A stretch of 12,895 nucleotides of DNA, from UHGV virus genome UHGV-0267677. One strand, written 5' to 3'. The DNA comes from a virus. The first letter of the stretch is position 1. Each line of letters starts with the position of its first letter. Positions 1,409 to 12,631 of the stretch are shown piece after piece. A program made the translations under genes and the position numbers. The notes under the pieces were generated by a model. That model searched no databases, had not been told where the DNA came from, and saw only the letters and a program-made list of their open reading frames with translations.

Positions 1409-2127
1409 AAAACATCGCCGCACAGATGATTAACTTTGACCGTGAGCAGATGCGTCGGATCGCCAACAACATGCCGGAACAGTACGACGAAAAGCCGCAG
1501 GTACAGCAGGTAGCGCAGATCATCAATGGTGTGTTCAGCCAGTTACTGGCAACTTTCCCGGCGAGCCTGGCTAACCGTGACCAGAATGAACTGAACGAAA
1601 TCCGCCGCCAGTGGGTTCTGGCTTTCCGGGAAAACGGGATCACCACGATGGAACAGGTTAACGCAGGAATGCGCGTAGCCCGTCGGCAGAATCGACCATT
1701 CCTGCCATCACCCGGGCAGTTTGTCGCCTGGTGCCGGGAAGAAGCATCCGTTACCGCCGGGCTGCCAAACGCCAGCGAGCTGGTTGATATGGTTTACGAG
1801 TATTGCCGGAAGCGAGGCCTGTATCCGGATGCGGAGTCTTATCCGTGGAAATCAAACGCGCACTACTGGCTGGTTACCAACCTGTATCAGAACATGCGGG
1901 CCAATGCGTTGACTGACGCGGAATTACGGCGCAAGGCTGCCGATGAACTGTCCTGTATGACCGCACGAATTAACCGTGGTGAGGCTATACCTGAACCAGT
2001 AAAACAACTTCCTGTCATGGGCGGTAGACCTCTAAATCGTGCACAGGCTCTGGCGAAGATCGCAGAAATCAAAGCTAAGTTTGGGCTGAAAGGGGGAAAA
2101 GCATTATATAAAAAGATTTCGAAATAA
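1405..2127 (+). CDS. P: Replication protein P (DnaB helicase loader), lambda-type
   Basis: 240-aa translation MKNIAAQMINFDREQMRRIANNMPEQYDEKPQVQQVAQIINGVF... appears almost identical to lambda P from memory. SD GGGGTGGA precedes ATG 1405; stop TAA 2125-2127. Confidence 0.95.
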   Translation: MKNIAAQMINFDREQMRRIANNMPEQYDEKPQVQQVAQIINGVFSQLLATFPASLANRDQNELNEIRRQWVLAFRENGITTMEQVNAGMRVARRQNRPFLPSPGQFVAWCREEASVTAGLPNASELVDMVYEYCRKRGLYPDAESYPWKSNAHYWLVTNLYQNMRANALTDAELRRKAADELSCMTARINRGEAIPEPVKQLPVMGGRPLNRAQALAKIAEIKAKFGLKGGKALYKKISK

Positions 2128-2279
2128 TGCATTGATTTTTATGTTTTTTTCTGTTCAGGTTCTATTGGTTGAAATTAATGCCACTGGGAATAAAAGTTTT
2201 AGCAAAGCCCTTCAAAAATGTTGCTGTTGTAAGCTAGAATAATGCGCCAAATTTACATTGCTGAAACCTGGAATATAGG

Positions 2280-2945
2280 ATGAAAATCATACAGTTACAA
2301 ATGGTATTTTTTTACGATTCATCAACGACTGTCGATTTCGATGGAATGTCGTATTTTATTAGGCAAACTTTTAAAAAGAAGGCAGGTATTGAATTAACAA
2401 ACAATATGATGTTGGGCGTTTTACCTATGGATACCCCACCAGAGATTCCTCGTCTCCAATTGTTTTCTATAGATAATAAATTTAGAGTTCAATGCTCACT
2501 GCAGAGATGTGATTTGTTTTTTGAACGTATGGATTCTGAGCAAGAGGTAGACTTACATTTGTTTCAAGAAGTTTTCGATAGTGTGGTTGATATCCATAAA
2601 GAACTCAATAAGGATATTATCAGAATAGGCTTGGTGGCCGTTAAGGCGGAATTAAACAACAACCCAAACAAAGAGATTGTTAAAAACTATCTTAGTAACA
2701 ACATGCAGAATGATAGCGAAATAATTGAAGATATTAATTTAATGTATAATAAAAAATTCGAGTTTGAGCAGTCCATATTTAATTGTCATTTGTCGATTAT
2801 GTCAGGATATGATCTTGTCAGAGAACAACCAATGCTAGTGAAACAGATCGATGTGAATACAATCGAGAGTTTTATATTTAAAGATAAATATACCGCAGAA
2901 AAAACAAAAAAAGCCTTTTTAAGTAAAGTGAATGAAATTCAGTAA
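2280..2945 (+). CDS. Hypothetical protein, cargo gene 1 of the AT-rich island (no recognisable motif; start uncertain)
   Basis: 221-aa ORF in a strongly AT-rich block with a Lys/Asn/Ile-rich composition. ATG 2280 has poor SD spacing (AGGA abuts the ATG), so a downstream in-frame start is possible. Ends TAA 2943-2945, 14 nt before gene 2. No antisense ORF of comparable quality. Confidence 0.55.
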   Translation: MKIIQLQMVFFYDSSTTVDFDGMSYFIRQTFKKKAGIELTNNMMLGVLPMDTPPEIPRLQLFSIDNKFRVQCSLQRCDLFFERMDSEQEVDLHLFQEVFDSVVDIHKELNKDIIRIGLVAVKAELNNNPNKEIVKNYLSNNMQNDSEIIEDINLMYNKKFEFEQSIFNCHLSIMSGYDLVREQPMLVKQIDVNTIESFIFKDKYTAEKTKKAFLSKVNEIQ

Positions 2946-2959
2946 TGTGAGGTGGCTGA

Positions 2960-3919
2960 ATGAATAAGGATGATAATAAAAAGGATATAAAAAGAATTGC
3001 AAATAATAATGCTATAGTCAACGATGACATGGCAAAAAGAACTGCGCATCATTCACTTTATTCTAATTCACAAGTATCGAATAGTACATCTACGTATACA
3101 GGAGGGGTACAAAAAATTAGTAATTTGCAGATAGATAATAAAACTGCAACAGCTTCAAATAAAGAGCGGGAAAGTATATCTATCAAAGACGCGGCACCAC
3201 AAAACTTAATAAAAACCTCTCTTTTTGTTAATGAAAAAGAAATGTTGCATGAAGCTATAAAATACAGTTCAAAAGCAACTGTGCCGGTGATGGATAATAC
3301 TGTCTCTAATGCCATTTTATCTAATTACTTTGTTAATAATAATTCTGAATCTACAATTTCTTTTAATAAAGAGAATGTAAAAAAATATACAAAAAGTGAT
3401 ATTGATAACATCCTCTGGAAAAATATCAATGATCAACTAACCAATTTTTCGCAAGAGTTGAATAAGAGCAAAAAGAATATTAATGATACTAAAAGAAAAA
3501 TAGGTAAGGTAATGTCTTCATTATCTCAGCAAACTGCAAAGATTGAGCAATTTGATGCAACATTATCAAATGCTGAAAAAGATATACATGAGAAAGTTAA
3601 AAGCTTTGAATCGGAAGTAATTACAGCAAGGAACTCAATGCTGGGTGTCATTGCTTTATTTGCTTCTTTCTTTACTTTCATTTCTATTTCAGTAAACGTA
3701 TTTTCTCGCGATATGTCTTTAAGCATGTCAATCTCAGTTTTGTTAGTGATATGGTCGTGCTTAATTAGCTTTATCTTTGTTTTTATGGCAGGGATTAGCA
3801 AGGGAGGAGCTTTTTTTACAAGCTCATCATTTATTAAGCATGCCATTTTTATGGTTGTGCTTTTTATTTCATCTTTCGCACTCCCTAAAGTTATTTTTAA
3901 TATCTTTGCAATTAGCTGA
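2960..3919 (+). CDS. Hypothetical membrane protein, cargo gene 2 (N/S/T-rich N-terminus, coiled-coil-like middle, three C-terminal TM helices)
   Basis: Strong SD GAGGTGG 4 nt upstream of ATG 2960. Hydrophobic segments at about aa 227-247, 255-278 and 293-317. The preceding ~75 aa (KNINDQL...KVKSFESEV) is heptad-like and charged. Confidence 0.7.
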   Translation: MNKDDNKKDIKRIANNNAIVNDDMAKRTAHHSLYSNSQVSNSTSTYTGGVQKISNLQIDNKTATASNKERESISIKDAAPQNLIKTSLFVNEKEMLHEAIKYSSKATVPVMDNTVSNAILSNYFVNNNSESTISFNKENVKKYTKSDIDNILWKNINDQLTNFSQELNKSKKNINDTKRKIGKVMSSLSQQTAKIEQFDATLSNAEKDIHEKVKSFESEVITARNSMLGVIALFASFFTFISISVNVFSRDMSLSMSISVLLVIWSCLISFIFVFMAGISKGGAFFTSSSFIKHAIFMVVLFISSFALPKVIFNIFAIS

Positions 3920-4020
3920 CTATCAGATGTTATCTTCAGTTGTTTAGGGTTGATTTAAAAGCGAATCTTAATATTTTCAAGTTTTGAATTTAGAAATAAA
4001 AAAGCCATAATATTGTCATC

Positions 4021-4148
4021 GGAGCCTAAAAAACTCCGGTGACTTCTGCGCTAAACGGGGACGTTTATGCGCACACACAATCCAAACTCTCATCTCCATT
4101 CACAGATGCAGAAATGCACCTACGATTTTTTACATTCGGTGTTTTACT
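4021..4148 (+). repeat. Direct repeat copy 1 (~125 bp, ~90% identical to copy 2), containing a conserved GGGA-loop hairpin
   Basis: ggagcctaaaaaactccggtgacttctgcgctaaacggggacgtttatgcgcaca...ccattcacagatgcagaaatgcacct.cgatttttt recurs at 5954-6078 with a few substitutions and no indels. Internal imperfect hairpin tgcgctaaacg-GGGA-cgttta(t)gcgca. Confidence 0.85.
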
Positions 4149-4550
4149 TCGACAGCCAGAATTGGGAGTCTCTATTCGTCTGGCGGCTAAAGGTGATATG
4201 GAAATCGTTATGTTTTGGCCTGAGGTAGTTGTAACTGTTGTAGCAACTATGGCTGTGATCATCATGGTGTCCATTTACTGGGGTTGACGACATGATTTAT
4301 CCGGCGCTATATTCTGTGCGTTGCCGCAAAATCGGCACACGGGATTGGCGTCCCGGGATACTACTCAACGCATACCGCGTTAAGCGGTTTTTTTGTGCGC
4401 TAAGCACGGCTATGCCCAAATTATGGTGGGCTGTGTGAGGGCTTCTTCGGAAGCGCCGGGTTTGAGTAGCCGGTTACGCCAACCTTACACAGTTCACCAC
4501 CAGTCGATTGGCGTCGTTGGTGGTGATGGTTAACCTGATGAGGTGATACT

Positions 4551-5159
4551 ATGACTACTCAATTAGCATTCCACAAAACGACGTTTACCCCGATTTGCCA
4601 CAATAACAGAATTTGGCTTACTGCCACTGAAGTTGGTTTAGCACTGGAATATGCGGACGATAAAGCAGTTCAGCGCATTTACTCTCGGCACTCAGATGAA
4701 TTCACAGATATGATGACAAGGGTGGTCAAAGTGACCACCCCTCGTGGAATGCAGGAGTCTCGAGTATTTAGCCTTCGCGGAGCCCATTTGATCGCCATGT
4801 TTGCTCGTACTCCTGTGGCCAAAGAATTCCGCCGCTGGGTTCTGGATATTCTCGATCGAGAAGTTCAACAATCCCCAATCACAAAACAATTCACTGATAA
4901 CGAACTTTGCACACTCGCCTGGTTATGGCGAGCAAGTGATACGATGTTAACCGCCTGCCAGAACGTTACGCCCCTTCTTCAGGTCGCAGAGCATCGCGAA
5001 GCAGGTAGATTCACTTCAATCGAACAAGAATATCCTCGGATACTCAACAGGGCGCGAGAAATCCTTGCCAGAGAAACGGCGCATGTAAAATTCCAACCGT
5101 GGCAGGATGATAAGTGGAGTCGTGTGTTACCATATTTCCGTCAGAATCTGTTGCAATAA
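4551..5159 (+). CDS. Bro-N domain protein (phage antirepressor/KilA-N-like DNA-binding family), C-terminal half unassigned
   Basis: SD GAGGTGA 5 nt upstream of ATG 4551. N-terminal region ...NRIWLTATEVGLALEY...RVFSLRGAHLIAMFARTPVAKEFRRWVLDIL fits the Bro-N signature I recall (...YSLIMRSRKPEAKAFRKWV...). Confidence 0.75.
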   Translation: MTTQLAFHKTTFTPICHNNRIWLTATEVGLALEYADDKAVQRIYSRHSDEFTDMMTRVVKVTTPRGMQESRVFSLRGAHLIAMFARTPVAKEFRRWVLDILDREVQQSPITKQFTDNELCTLAWLWRASDTMLTACQNVTPLLQVAEHREAGRFTSIEQEYPRILNRAREILARETAHVKFQPWQDDKWSRVLPYFRQNLLQ

Positions 5160-5178
5160 AGTCACTAGTTAGAAATAC

Positions 5179-5218
5179 TGCCAGCATTCTGCGATGACGG
5201 AAGTGCTGGCATTTTTTT
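5179..5218 (+). terminator. Rho-independent terminator downstream of the Bro-N gene
   Basis: 8-bp stem tgccagca/tgctggca (5179-5186 and 5204-5211) followed by T7 (5212-5218), 20 nt after the stop codon at 5157-5159. Confidence 0.6.
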
Positions 5219-5393
5219 GGTAATGTGCGAGTCCATTTCATAAAATACGGGTACTGGAACTGGACGATATAATCTAAAAGATACCATTATCAGTAGCATT
5301 AAAATCGCTATGTGCCGATACGGATATAAGTTATATTGATTGTTCACATACCTTATTGGATATTACTGAGGGGTGTTTATATAAGGTGTAACG

Positions 5394-5903
5394 ATGATGT
5401 GGAACTTTGACAGTGCCGACTTAAGTGCAATAGCAGCAGGCATTTCTGCGTTTGGCACATTAGCCGCAGCGGGGTCGGCGCTTGCAAGTTGGTACACGTC
5501 AAAAAAAGCGCTGCAGCTACAAAATAGAGTTTACCTTTATGAGTCTTTAAAGGCTTGCGCTGAGAGAGCCAATTCATCAGCTAAAGATAAGCGCGGATCT
5601 GAATGGAGCGTTAATGATGCAGCGGATATCATCAGGTGCCTAGTACGGGCGATGGAGATCATCAAGCAGGATAGCCAGCAGAAAGAAGGTAATCAGGCAT
5701 TAATGTTGAAACAGTACTTTGTTAATCTGCTAATAATGGAACTGTACGAGGAAGTTCATAACGGTGATGCGGCTGATTCTGTTTTTAAAAGGACGGAACC
5801 TACACAAGTACTTGATAACTTATGGGGCAAATGGCAGGAGGCTATAGCTTTTTTTGATATTTGGAATTACCCAGTTGCGACTGAGGAAGACTTGGCAGAC
5901 TAA
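5394..5903 (+). CDS. Hypothetical protein with one N-terminal transmembrane/signal-anchor helix
   Basis: SD AAGGTG 5 nt upstream of ATG 5394. aa ~10-33 (LSAIAAGISAFGTLAAAGSALASWY) is hydrophobic; the remainder is soluble and acidic. Possible sigma70-like promoter TTGATT-17-GATATT at 5336-5364. Lies between the terminator and repeat copy 2. Confidence 0.6.
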   Translation: MMWNFDSADLSAIAAGISAFGTLAAAGSALASWYTSKKALQLQNRVYLYESLKACAERANSSAKDKRGSEWSVNDAADIIRCLVRAMEIIKQDSQQKEGNQALMLKQYFVNLLIMELYEEVHNGDAADSVFKRTEPTQVLDNLWGKWQEAIAFFDIWNYPVATEEDLAD

Positions 5904-5953
5904 TTTTCAGCACATTTGATTTCCAATAATCAACCAGCCATAATCATGCCATT

Positions 5954-8159: not shown

Positions 8160-9257
8160 TTAGAACTGGTAAACCAGACCTACAGCAACGATGTCATCAG
8201 TGCTTACACCGAGTGCTTTAGTGAAGTCATTTTTGTCAAGCAGGTTGATTTTGTAATCAACGAAAGTAGACATATTTTTGTTGAAGTAATAGGTTGCACC
8301 TACATCAACATATTTGACTAAGTCCTGATCGCCCCATACTCCAAGATCCTTACCTTTAGATTGCAGGTAAGCAACGGACGGACGCAGACCGAAATCGAAC
8401 TGATATTGTGCAACAGCTTCGAAGTTTTGGGCTTTATTAGCAACGAAGTGATCAGCAAATACAGTCATATTCTGGGTTTCAGAATAGGTAGTGGCCAGGT
8501 AAATGTTGTTAGCGTCATATTTCAGACCTGCGGCCCAAACTTCTGCATTTTTACCGGAAGCAAATACTTCAGGAAGAACTTTCCCTGCATTAACTTGAGT
8601 GTCGGTACGATCAGATTTCGCATAAGTTGCACCGATACCGAATCCTTCGTATTCATAGGTAGCAGAGAAACCGAAGCCATCACCGTTACCTTCAGTGTAG
8701 TTATCGAAATCGCTACGATCGTTTTTGCCTTGGTACTGAGCAGCAAAGTTCAGACCATCAACCAGACCAAAGAAGTCGTTGTTACGATAGGTTGCAACAC
8801 CAGTGGTGCGACCAGTCATGAACACATCTGTTTGGGTCCAGGTATCGCCACCGAATTCTGGCAGAACGTCAGTCCACGCACCGATGTCGTATGCTACACC
8901 GTAGTTACGGCCGTAATCGATTGAGCCGTAGTCACCGAATTTCAGGCCTGCAAATGCAAGACGGGTTTTGTCTTTGGAGGAACCTTGAGATTCAGCGCGG
9001 TTGCCTTTGAATTCATATTCCCACTGACCGAAACCAGTCAGTTGATCGTTGATTTGGGTTTCACCTTTGAAGCCAAGACGGGCATAAGTAGTATCACCAT
9101 CATCTGCATCATTAGAGGAGAAGTAGTGCTTAGCATTAACTTTCCCGTACAGATCCAGCTTGTTACTGTCTTTATTATAAATTTCAGCTGCCTGAGCAGA
9201 CATCGCCATCAGTACTGATGCAGCTACAGCAGAAATTGCCACTGTTAATTTTTTCAT
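8160..9257 (-). CDS. nmpC: Outer-membrane general porin, NmpC/Lc (OmpC/OmpF family), apparently intact
   Basis: 365 aa with signal peptide [30 protein letters not shown], the typical porin block LYGKV...[26 protein letters not shown], and C-terminal ...VGLVYQF. Sits between Q and the holin on the opposite strand, as nmpC does in DLP12. Confidence 0.95.
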
Positions 9258-9830: not shown

Positions 9831-10046
9831 ATGAAATCCATGGATAAGTTAACAACGGGTGTCGCCTATGGCACCTCAGCAGGTAGTGCCGGTTACTGGT
9901 TTTTACAGCTGCTCGATAAAGTCACGCCCTCACAGTGGGCAGCAATAGGTGTGCTGGGTAGCCTGGTATTTGGCCTGCTGACGTACCTGACAAACCTTTA
10001 TTTCAAGATTAAAGAAGACAAGCGTAAGGCTGCACGGGGAGAGTAA
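9831..10046 (+). CDS. essD: Class II holin, phage 21 S-type pinholin with dual-start motif (EssD/EssQ-like)
   Basis: 71 aa [31 protein letters not shown]...[11 protein letters not shown] with the Met1-Lys-Ser-Met4 dual start, two TM segments and a charged C-terminus. SD GAGGTGGGG upstream. Confidence 0.9.
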
Positions 10047-10050
10047 TTCA

Positions 10051-10365
10051 ATGACTCAAAAATATGAACTGATTGTGAAAGGGATCCGCAATTTTGAGAA
10101 TAAAGTTACGGTAACTTTAGCGTTACGGGACAAAGAACGCTTTGACGGTGAAATTTTTGACCTGGACATCTCGCTGGACCGTGTTGAAGGTGCCGCGCTG
10201 GAGTTTTATGAGGCAGCAGCCAGAAGGAGCATCAGACAGGTCTTCCTGGATGTTGCTGCCGGGTTATGTGAAGGGGACGAGCTGTTGCCAGAAACGCGCC
10301 CCTGTTCAGAGGCGCGGTATACCATAAAAATTAACAGTTCTGATAACTCGATTACGGGTTGTTAG
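10051..10365 (+). CDS. Conserved hypothetical acidic protein between holin and endolysin (YdfR/DUF1327-like by position and size)
   Basis: 104 aa, starting 4 nt after the holin stop with SD GGAGAG. I recall a ~103-aa gene (ydfR) in the same position in the Qin-type lysis cassette; sequence identity was not verified. Confidence 0.7.
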   Translation: MTQKYELIVKGIRNFENKVTVTLALRDKERFDGEIFDLDISLDRVEGAALEFYEAAARRSIRQVFLDVAAGLCEGDELLPETRPCSEARYTIKINSSDNSITGC

Positions 10366-10420
10366 CTTTTTGCAGTTGGCTTTCCGGTATCTTTCATTGG
10401 TAGCATCCTGATAAATATCC

Positions 10421-10954
10421 ATGAGCGCAAAAATCAAATACGCCCTGTCAGCTGCTGTTCTGGCGCTGATTGCTGCAGGCGCGTCTGCTCCTCAGATACT
10501 TGACCAGTTTCTGGACGAAAAAGAGGGTAACCACACAACGGCATACCGCGATGGTTCCGGCATCTGGACCATCTGTCGGGGGGCCACGATGGTGGATGGA
10601 AAACCCGTTTTTCCCGGTATGAAACTGTCGAAGGAAAAATGCGACCAGGTCAACGCCATTGAGCGTGATAAGGCGCTGGCATGGGTGGAGAAAAACATCA
10701 AAGTGCCATTGAGCGAACCCCAGAAAGCGGGGATCGCGTCATTCTGTCCGTACAACATTGGTCCCAGTAAGTGTTTCCCGTCGACGTTTTATAAACGAAT
10801 TAATGCAGGTGATCGCAGGGGAGCGTGTGAGGCGATTCGCTGGTGGATTAAGGACGGTGGCAGAGACTGCCGTATTCGTTCAAACAACTGCTACGGTCAG
10901 GTTGTTCGCCGTGACCAGGAGAGCGCATTAGCCTGTTGGGGTATCGACAGATAA
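10421..10954 (+). CDS. SAR endolysin (T4-lysozyme-like muramidase with N-terminal signal-arrest-release domain)
   Basis: 177 aa. N-terminal weakly hydrophobic Ala/Gly-rich SAR segment YALSAAVLALIAAGASAP, then the catalytic triad spacing E-x8-D-x5-T in DEKEGNHTTAYRDGSGIWTICRG. Pairs with the pinholin upstream. Confidence 0.9.
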   Translation: MSAKIKYALSAAVLALIAAGASAPQILDQFLDEKEGNHTTAYRDGSGIWTICRGATMVDGKPVFPGMKLSKEKCDQVNAIERDKALAWVEKNIKVPLSEPQKAGIASFCPYNIGPSKCFPSTFYKRINAGDRRGACEAIRWWIKDGGRDCRIRSNNCYGQVVRRDQESALACWGIDR

Positions 10955-11044
10955 GCAGGATATTCTGCTGAAAAATGCGGGATGGCCACGCGAGCGGATA
11001 ACACGAAATCCTGCTAACTGGTAAAACAGAAGTGAATAAAAGTA

Positions 11045-12280: not shown

Positions 12281-12631
12281 ATGCCATCACGAATCCCACG
12301 CGCCTGCCGTAAGCGTGGATGTGCAGGTACAACCACAGACAGTTCTGGTTACTGCGATAAACATCGTGGCGAAGGATGGGTACAGCATCAACGCGGACTG
12401 AGCCGCCACCAGCGTGGCTATGGCTCGAAATGGGATGCCATACGTGCGCGCATACTGAAGCGTGATAATCATCTGTGTCAGAACTGCCTGCGCAATGGGA
12501 GAGCCGTTGAAGCCAGAACTGTGGACCACATCATTCCGAAAGCTCATGGTGGCACGGATGCAGACAGTAACCTGCAGAGTCTGTGCTGGCCCTGTCATAA
12601 AGCAAAAACAGCGCGCGAACGCATCAATTGA
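12281..12631 (+). CDS. HNH homing-type endonuclease (packaging-associated)
   Basis: 116 aa with Cys pairs (CRKRGC...CDKH, CQNC, CWPCH) and the HNH core DHIIPKAHGGTDADSNLQSLCWPCH. Lies immediately upstream of the small terminase, as in HK97-like cos phages. Confidence 0.9.
   Translation: MPSRIPRACRKRGCAGTTTDSSGYCDKHRGEGWVQHQRGLSRHQRGYGSKWDAIRARILKRDNHLCQNCLRNGRAVEARTVDHIIPKAHGGTDADSNLQSLCWPCHKAKTARERIN

Follow-up and report, generated by a model that had tools for sequence, protein, structure and literature searches.

The window analysed here is a stretch of 12,895 nucleotides (nt) of the virus genome UHGV-0267677, and this study concerns two adjacent genes inside it, gene 1 (2280-2945) and gene 2 (2960-3919). 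The window belongs to an Escherichia coli prophage of the DLP12/lambda type and constitutes its early-right and lysis region. Its segment 2100-4500 matches NZ_OZ547226.1 at 100% identity, and the gene order of that record runs from the replication genes O and P through two 'hypothetical proteins' to a P22AR_C antirepressor, followed by ybcN/ninE/ybcO/rusA/ylcG, Q, an ompC-like porin and the holin-lysozyme-Rz genes. The two hypothetical proteins, WP_000691849.1 (221 amino acids, aa) and WP_021546790.1 (319 aa), are the products of gene 1 and gene 2, respectively, and current annotation pipelines call both genes merely 'hypothetical protein'. Comparative sequence analysis indicates that the two genes make up one mobile cargo operon of prophages, that is, a 'moron' transcribed from a conserved promoter of its own, whose second gene encodes an inner-membrane protein. 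The features of this cassette, all on the plus strand, are the following.

2094 to 2279, plus strand: left junction and promoter region (end of the P similarity, promoter scan, drop in G+C content)
2280 to 2945, plus strand: gene 1, a 221-aa soluble alpha/beta protein (WP_000691849.1, phrog_24110)
2946 to 2959, plus strand: intergenic spacer of 14 nt, the operon junction, with the Shine-Dalgarno sequence GAGGTGG at 2949-2955
2960 to 3391, plus strand: gene 2 aa 1-144, hypervariable low-complexity head, predicted disordered and cytoplasmic
3392 to 3640, plus strand: gene 2 aa 145-227, coiled-coil stalk helix (AlphaFold2, heptad test)
3641 to 3904, plus strand: gene 2 aa 228-315, three predicted transmembrane (TM) helices (hydropathy, AlphaFold2, conservation)
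3641 to 3706, plus strand: helix TM1 (hydropathy, AlphaFold2)
3713 to 3799, plus strand: helix TM2 (hydropathy, AlphaFold2)
3824 to 3904, plus strand: helix TM3 (hydropathy, AlphaFold2)
3920 to 3982, plus strand: right junction of the cassette (start of the phage-82/lambda homology)

Gene 2 is an open reading frame (ORF) of 319 codons that begins with an ATG, 4-6 nt downstream of the GAGGTGG sequence. An earlier reading of the DNA letters, hereafter the original prediction, had described its product as a low-complexity N-terminus rich in N, S, T and K, a heptad-patterned centre at aa ~150-225 and three hydrophobic helices at the C-terminal end, and the three parts were recovered by independent means. 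Residues 1-140 contain 15% N, 12.9% S and 10% K, and their predicted local distance difference test (pLDDT) values stay below 50 in an AlphaFold2 (AF2) model based on a 22-sequence alignment. Residues 145-248 were modelled as a single helix with pLDDT of about 88-90. Inside this helix, the heptad register of aa 150-224 places hydrophobic residues at 71% of the a/d positions compared to 31% overall, a value that none of 20,000 shuffles reached. Kyte-Doolittle windows of 19 residues with a threshold of at least 1.6 delimited hydrophobic blocks at about 228-249, 255-282 and 289-319, and in the AF2 model the long helix ends at 248 and is followed by helices at 252-280 and 289-315. The membrane part thus spans nt 3641-3904, compared to the ~3638-3913 first proposed. 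Because AF2 gives one helix from 145 to 248, the coiled coil is predicted to run unbroken into TM1. The stalk ends just before the membrane in the conserved motif F-E-x-E-x2-x-A-R-N-S, with F216, E217, E219, A223, R224, N225 and S226 as invariant residues; N246, D251, W265 and K281 are invariant too, and TM1 carries the family signature I-A-L-F-A-S-F-F-T-F-I-S-I-S-V-N-x-F-S. Gene 2 is a real inner-membrane protein. Its topology is likely N-in, C-out, since a signal peptide is lacking, the part before TM1 is 227 residues long and loop 2 carries the residues K/K/H; with this orientation, the parts exposed to the periplasm would be tiny, consisting of the loop SRDMSL and a tail of ~10 aa.

Searches for a known relative of this protein returned little. 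Pfam and PDB sequence searches gave only generic sub-threshold coiled-coil matches over aa 154-225 (PDB E-values of at least 0.011), Foldseek against the PDB found nothing at E < 1 with the gene 2 model, and neither a transporter nor an enzyme fold was found. Homology to a phage morphogenesis or transport family, which would have spoken against the original prediction, was absent from Pfam, PHROGs, NCBIfam, PDB sequences and Foldseek-PDB. Its remark that there is no catalytic motif holds for gene 2; gene 1 does have a conserved polar motif, described below.

The gene lies in a T-rich stretch (AT skew of -0.17), and such composition alone yields ORFs rich in F, I and L. Two measurements place the membrane region of gene 2 beyond compositional chance. 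First, the last 122 codons showed a ratio of nonsynonymous to synonymous substitution (dN/dS) of 0.03-0.15 against the Klebsiella, Scandinavium and Erwinia copies, with dS saturated. Second, mean pairwise identity across 22 homologues was 76% in the TM part compared to 40% in the stalk and only 13% in the head, whose length varied between 95 and 197 residues. Judged by these codon and protein comparisons, gene 2 is a real gene under purifying selection, and its TM domain is conserved well past what a mere anchor requires.

A protein search with gene 2 returned 26 clusters at 90% identity, all of them from Enterobacterales. HMMER, run exhaustively against 1.84 billion representative sequences, extended the family to 76 clusters at E <= 1e-3, including proteins of Acinetobacter, Pseudomonas and metagenome-assembled genomes (MAGs) of candidate phyla, 165-340 aa long and with the same overall plan. 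TM1 has the consensus (R/K)-N-x-[VIL]-x3-[IL]-A-[LI]-F-[AV]-[AS]-F-F-[TS]-F-[IV]-S-[VI]-x-[IV]-N-[IV]-F-[ST]-K among these clusters. Pfam, applied to 38 members of the family, identified no shared family and no model covering any member. Pfam, NCBIfam and PADLOC made no family assignment for gene 1 or gene 2, PHROGs gave only families of unknown function, and none of the 5,027 models of PADLOC-DB v2.0.0 matched either protein at E <= 1. In the literature, we found no paper citing either WP accession or the PHROG numbers, nor a match in the DefensePredictor supplements. SNIPE and RexABpp were considered as the identity of the pair and rejected, both being unrelated proteins. At the level of genomes, the pair was present in 21 of 5,426 complete E. 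coli genomes, and tblastn of gene 2 gave no match in 50,697 GenBank phage records or in 72,556 PLSDB plasmids. Such rarity and patchiness are typical of accessory immunity cargo.

Gene 2 was consistently accompanied by gene 1. A gene of 220-221 aa lies 9-19 nt 5′ of the gene 2 homologue in every one of the seven contexts inspected, which come from Klebsiella aerogenes, Citrobacter werkmanii, Erwinia rhapontici, Leclercia, Scandinavium, Kosakonia and a further genome. Purpose-built hidden Markov models located a gene 1 homologue 5′ of gene 2 in every IMG/VR locus with upstream DNA, and the homologue was also present in all seven distant loci found with an Acinetobacter-type alignment (E-values between 1e-21 and 1e-28). 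The two remotest loci belong to a Spirochaetes MAG and an uncultured bacterium; even there, the protein encoded upstream (210 or 231 aa) is a remote gene 1 homologue, the profile-profile match by hhalign having 95.7% probability and an E-value of 1e-8 and being colinear over 183 columns. In 17 loci, the gap between the two genes was between -38 and +19 nt. Across these loci, the pairwise identities of gene 1 and gene 2 correlated at r = 0.95 (Mantel test, 0 of 5000 permutations); the two genes were inherited as one unit, with no partner swapping. Gene 1 is thereby, as far as locus comparison goes, the obligate partner of gene 2, which never stood alone in loci with upstream DNA.

The product of gene 1 is soluble, as indicated by a maximum 19-residue hydropathy of 0.53, and its predicted fold is an alpha/beta sandwich of two repeats (pLDDT 89.5). 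The most conserved motif is P49-x-D-x-P53-x-E-I-P57-R-L-Q-L-x-S63, and R76, D78, R115, N168 and D191 are conserved as well; R58, Q60, R76 and D78 are invariant. The combination of an AdoMetDC-like fold with S63 raised the possibility of a pyruvoyl enzyme, which was rejected because the serine is lost in the distant homologues of loci L033 and L037. PDB profile searches found no solved structure matching either protein of the pair.

Comparison with related phages located the limits of the cassette. The replication gene P resembles lambda-type P up to ~2093 (megablast, 152 phages, query 689/723), and homology to the pre-nin region of phage 82/lambda resumes at about 3983 (megablast); the insert is thus about 2094-3982. 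Base composition changes along the same interval, with a G+C fraction of ~0.55 in O/P, 0.29-0.33 over 2250-3750 and ~0.48 beyond, so that the cassette (~0.30) departs from its flanks (0.47-0.56). The final ~34 nt of P (2094-2127) are unlike all 152 lambda-type P genes, and the window lacks ren, a gene that comes after P in each of the six sibling phages compared. From these two facts, the cassette replaced ren and rewrote the C-terminus of P. The right flank, 3983-4136, corresponds to a part of phage 82 whose record marks a putative promoter and a 'possible regulator-binding site'. As for the way of insertion, a search for flanking repeats at the cassette gave only short AT-rich chance repeats.

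A promoter scan predicted a sigma-70-like promoter in the left junction, with a -35 box TTCAAA (2211-2216), a spacing of 18 nt and a -10 box TAGAAT (2235-2240) that lies ~40 nt before the ATG of gene 1. The -10 element (TAnAAT) and a -35-like CTTCAA/CTTTAT were kept equidistant 5′ of gene 1 in 9 unrelated contexts. Downstream of gene 2, no clear intrinsic terminator with a T-run follows directly in the window, and the hairpin at ~4014-4040 has no T-tail; clear intrinsic terminators do follow the gene 2 homologue in three other loci (L006, L010 and L035). Morons of lambdoid phages are small accessory genes that lie between conserved phage modules, differ from them in G+C content and have a promoter of their own. 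The cassette has a predicted promoter of its own, a deviant base composition and a presence/absence polymorphism among similar phages.

The pair occupies different slots in different genomes. The P-nin slot holds it in E. coli, Klebsiella and Kosakonia, and the rusA-Q slot in L031 and L033; in other cases, it sits at int-proximal ends (L006, L010 and L034), beside umuDC/SRAP, or in small chromosomal islets or prophage remnants (L004, L007 and L008). The sibling phage PhiR26_1, whose right flank is 99.8% identical, carries Ren and the validated system PD-lambda-1 in the slot where the window carries the pair. In L035, a RosmerTA pair starts 19 nt after the gene 2 homologue (RmrT 1.5e-68, RmrA 9.7e-168). 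In L014 (4832-6678) and L015 (4647-6618), a gene with a SocA/Panacea domain (PF13274; E-values of 1e-15 and 7e-13) lies 2-7 nt 5′ of the gene 1 homologue, which results in a three-gene operon of a Panacea protein, a remote gene 1 homologue and a remote gene 2 homologue.

Some further observations concern these neighbourhoods. L035 is IMG/VR UViG_2791355506_000003, where the RosmerTA region (4156-5906) is convergent to a distant gene 1-gene 2 pair and encodes an RmrA of 368 aa (helix-turn-helix and M78 peptidase) and an RmrT of 208 aa; an Arc-like repressor and a Bro-N gene are located just upstream, and the whole is a small phage defence cluster. The operons of L014 and L015, from an uncultured bacterium and a Spirochaetes MAG, lie in prophage-like regions with terminase genes downstream. 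Finally, the Kosakonia oryzae prophage L009, which carries the pair, encodes in its immunity region (1388-2566) an Mrr_cat/NA-iREase1 protein that matches Mrr-like nuclease models of PADLOC, including those for a type IV restriction endonuclease and the C-terminus of ZorD.

What does the pair do? Most likely, it is a new membrane-acting phage-exclusion or toxin-like system. Its pairing, mobility and own promoter, together with the PD-lambda-1 slot and the RosmerTA and Panacea neighbours, suggest a defence role, and the explanation that we favour, tentatively and with somewhat less than even confidence, is a two-component abortive-infection or exclusion module in which gene 2 would be an oligomeric membrane effector and gene 1 a cytosolic sensor or regulator. 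According to this proposal, the cassette would be transcribed in the lysogen from its own promoter. Gene 2 would insert N-in, its stalk would probably bundle several copies, and TM1-TM3 would form an oligomeric membrane assembly. Gene 1 would bind or control gene 2 from the cytoplasm, as a sensor or a brake. On detection of a superinfecting phage, the complex would switch, and membrane potential or integrity would be lost or some other block would arise at the level of the membrane. The parts of this proposal that we infer are oligomerisation, the activity as a channel or leak, what triggers it, how gene 1 takes part and the anti-phage function.

The overall logic would be analogous to that of RexA/RexB, built from unrelated proteins. 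RexA/RexB of phage lambda and systems of this type, such as PP_5643/PP_5644 of Pseudomonas putida, are expressed from the lysogen, combine a soluble with a small inner-membrane component and abort infection by membrane damage or depolarisation (PMC12894663). Likewise, the pair is a two-gene prophage unit with a soluble cytosolic component and a putative inner-membrane effector. The components themselves differ: gene 1 does not have the RexA fold (PDB 8TWQ), and RexB has ~144 aa and four TM helices, whereas gene 2 has 319 aa, a coiled-coil stalk and three TM helices. The genes also differ in placement, as rex lies beside cI and is co-transcribed with it, while the cassette lies between P and nin; about 3 kb 5′ of it, the parent prophage has its repressor region, which carries other genes.

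Several points weigh against the defence module. The P-nin slot takes up cargo in general and is no pure defence hotspot, since other siblings carry in it emrE/ybcK/ybcL/ybcM, small unknown genes, or an acyltransferase together with a lipoprotein. The link to Panacea consists of two related loci only, and the IMG/VR scan yielded no further Panacea-linked copies. In TM1, a polar stripe that could line a pore was not significant (P = 0.28). The original prediction of a membrane effector of abortive infection or exclusion is borne out in its anatomy and finds a supportive context; toxicity, pore formation and phage defence are still what we infer from these.

A wider form of the defence module is possible, if rather doubtful. 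It regards the pair as an unnamed, widespread two-component anti-phage family, in which gene 2 would be a small channel of a new kind, its stalk helix running on into a nearly invariant, pore-forming TM1; it would be gated by gene 1 as a novel alpha/beta sensor and be linked in evolution to PanT, the membrane-depolarising toxins of Panacea (PanA) systems. The host range of such a family would comprise Enterobacteriaceae, Acinetobacter, Pseudomonas and the MAGs of spirochaetes and candidate phyla, and one effector would be governed by either a Panacea antitoxin or a gene 1 sensor. Panacea antitoxins neutralise many unrelated toxins, membrane disruptors included, and the PanT of Helicobacter sp. 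13S00482-2 (cluster T4, WP_095295403.1), described as a coiled coil at the N-terminus with TM helices at the C-terminus, depolarises E. coli but does not make the cells permeable to SYTOX (PMC8832971). Gene 2 shares this layout, as far as the published description goes, and the likeness also speaks for the favoured defence module; the best PDB sequence match of gene 2, the coiled coil of the tail-needle gp26, was counted as part of the same likeness. The loci are arranged differently. T4 loci are bicistronic, PanA followed by the toxin, whereas here the gene 1 homologue stands between the two or replaces PanA. In E. coli, no Panacea gene accompanies the cassette, whose neighbours are P and the Bro-N/P22AR_C antirepressor. 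Cluster look-ups of 20 distant gene 2 matches returned names from Acinetobacter, Pseudomonas and MAGs and no T4 accession.

The pair might instead exclude superinfecting phages without killing the host, with gene 2, aided by gene 1, stopping genome entry at the inner membrane. HK97 gp15, P22 SieA and T4 Imm are inner-membrane exclusion proteins that each work alone, at the step of entry, and to our knowledge none of them has an obligate soluble partner. The cassette resembles superinfection exclusion (Sie) proteins and morons as a small accessory inner-membrane gene with its own promoter and deviant G+C content between phage modules, and a prophage inner-membrane protein with its own promoter could be expressed in lysogens. 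Besides this moron-type placement, the two-gene enterobacterial version comes without an antitoxin, which fits a non-toxic protein. We nevertheless regard simple exclusion as unlikely. In its likely topology, gene 2 exposes very little to the periplasm, and its variable part is cytoplasmic, the opposite of what would be expected for recognising tape-measure or ejection proteins. Toxicity and a trigger inside the cell are suggested by the obligate cytosolic partner, which sets the pair apart from Sie proteins, and by the Panacea antitoxin of the remote copies, and no homology to known Sie proteins was seen.

More improbable, in our view, is an addiction or toxin-antitoxin (TA) module that stabilises the prophage or island, with gene 2 as the toxin, gene 1 as its antidote or regulator and no dedicated anti-phage role. 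Such a module would account for a tight, co-inherited bicistronic pair, for the Panacea antitoxin gene joined to the operon in two loci, for the likeness to membrane-depolarising PanT toxins of similar layout (PMC8832971) and for the survival of the pair in degraded prophage remnants and chromosomal islets. However, gene 1, with its 221 aa, well-folded and as conserved as gene 2, is unlike small labile antitoxins, and if it were the antidote, the extra PanA of the remote loci would be redundant. Moreover, TA and defence roles can coexist.

We give still less credence to a role in the lytic programme of the phage itself, such as tethering replication or recombination complexes to the membrane, modulating the time of lysis or taking over the host, with the pair transcribed from pR together with the early-right operon. 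The position inside the early-right operon in three genera (P-nin or rusA-Q) and the fact that no clear terminator follows gene 2 here would agree with it. On the other hand, the pair is found in a small minority of E. coli genomes and in none of the GenBank phage records searched, near-identical viable sibling phages lack the cassette, and the pair also occurs in places that are not operons, namely next to int and in islets of the chromosome. It has its own promoter as well, and the window contains a separate, complete lysis cassette (9831-11000) with the holin gene at 9831-10046, lysozyme and Rz. Class I holins of the lambda S type can permeabilise the inner membrane, have three TM helices and about 70-150 aa, are encoded directly 5′ of the endolysin and have no long soluble domains. 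Gene 2 resembles them as a phage-encoded protein with three TM helices, but it has 319 aa, lies ~6 kb from the lysis cassette and has no holin match in Pfam or PHROGs. Least probable of all is some other membrane function in lysogenic conversion that has no bearing on phages, for instance in signalling, stress tolerance or the modification of the envelope, a reading which the emrE, ybcL/ybcM or acyltransferase and lipoprotein genes of siblings in the same slot and the lack of a recognisable functional domain would allow, and against which stand the absence of a transporter or enzyme fold, a distribution that tracks prophages of many genera and not a niche, and the adjacency to RosmerTA and Panacea.

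Other parts of the window and of its parent prophage also drew our attention. Downstream of the cassette, Rfam gave gathering-level matches to the Hfq-binding small RNA isrK (4322-4394, 58.7 bits) and to the C4 antisense RNA (4419-4504, 74.8 bits), directly 5′ of a Bro-N/P22AR_C antirepressor gene (4551-5159); a strong promoter-like site, TTGACG-18-TATATT (4284-4313), precedes both matches. The region 4284-5159 looks like a control module of the P1/P7 immI c4-ant type inside a lambdoid prophage. Beyond it, a 169-aa ORF (5394-5903; phrog_1779, function unassigned) with a hydrophobic N-terminal segment and no Pfam or PADLOC match is kept beside the antirepressor in sibling phages. Between Q and the holin gene, the minus strand carries an ompC/nmpC-like porin gene (8160-9257) with low-G+C DNA on either side, which is the known porin moron of DLP12-type prophages. 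At the right end of the window, a Cys/His-rich ORF of 116 aa (12281-12631) contains an HNH-like motif, DHIIPKAHGG...N...LC..CH; lambdoid phages often have an HNH endonuclease beside the terminase, at a position like this one. Outside the window, at 3964-5537 of the parent prophage (L001), a HipA-family kinase gene and a DUF3037 gene adjoin the S24 repressor and are candidates for a second toxin or defence pair in the immunity region.

Returning to the two-component defence module proposed for gene 1 and gene 2, if it is correct, the pair would be a new combination of effector and sensor with no Pfam, PADLOC or structural precedent, among the few membrane-acting immune systems, and its lambdoid context, compatible with E. 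coli K-12, would make it simple to test. The conserved TM1-TM3 beside a freely varying disordered head would offer a compact model for a switched, membrane-damaging helix bundle. Panacea control in remote relatives would connect classical TA modules with prophage immunity via one effector. If the pair has no role in defence, it still is a conserved, mobile gene pair of prophages.

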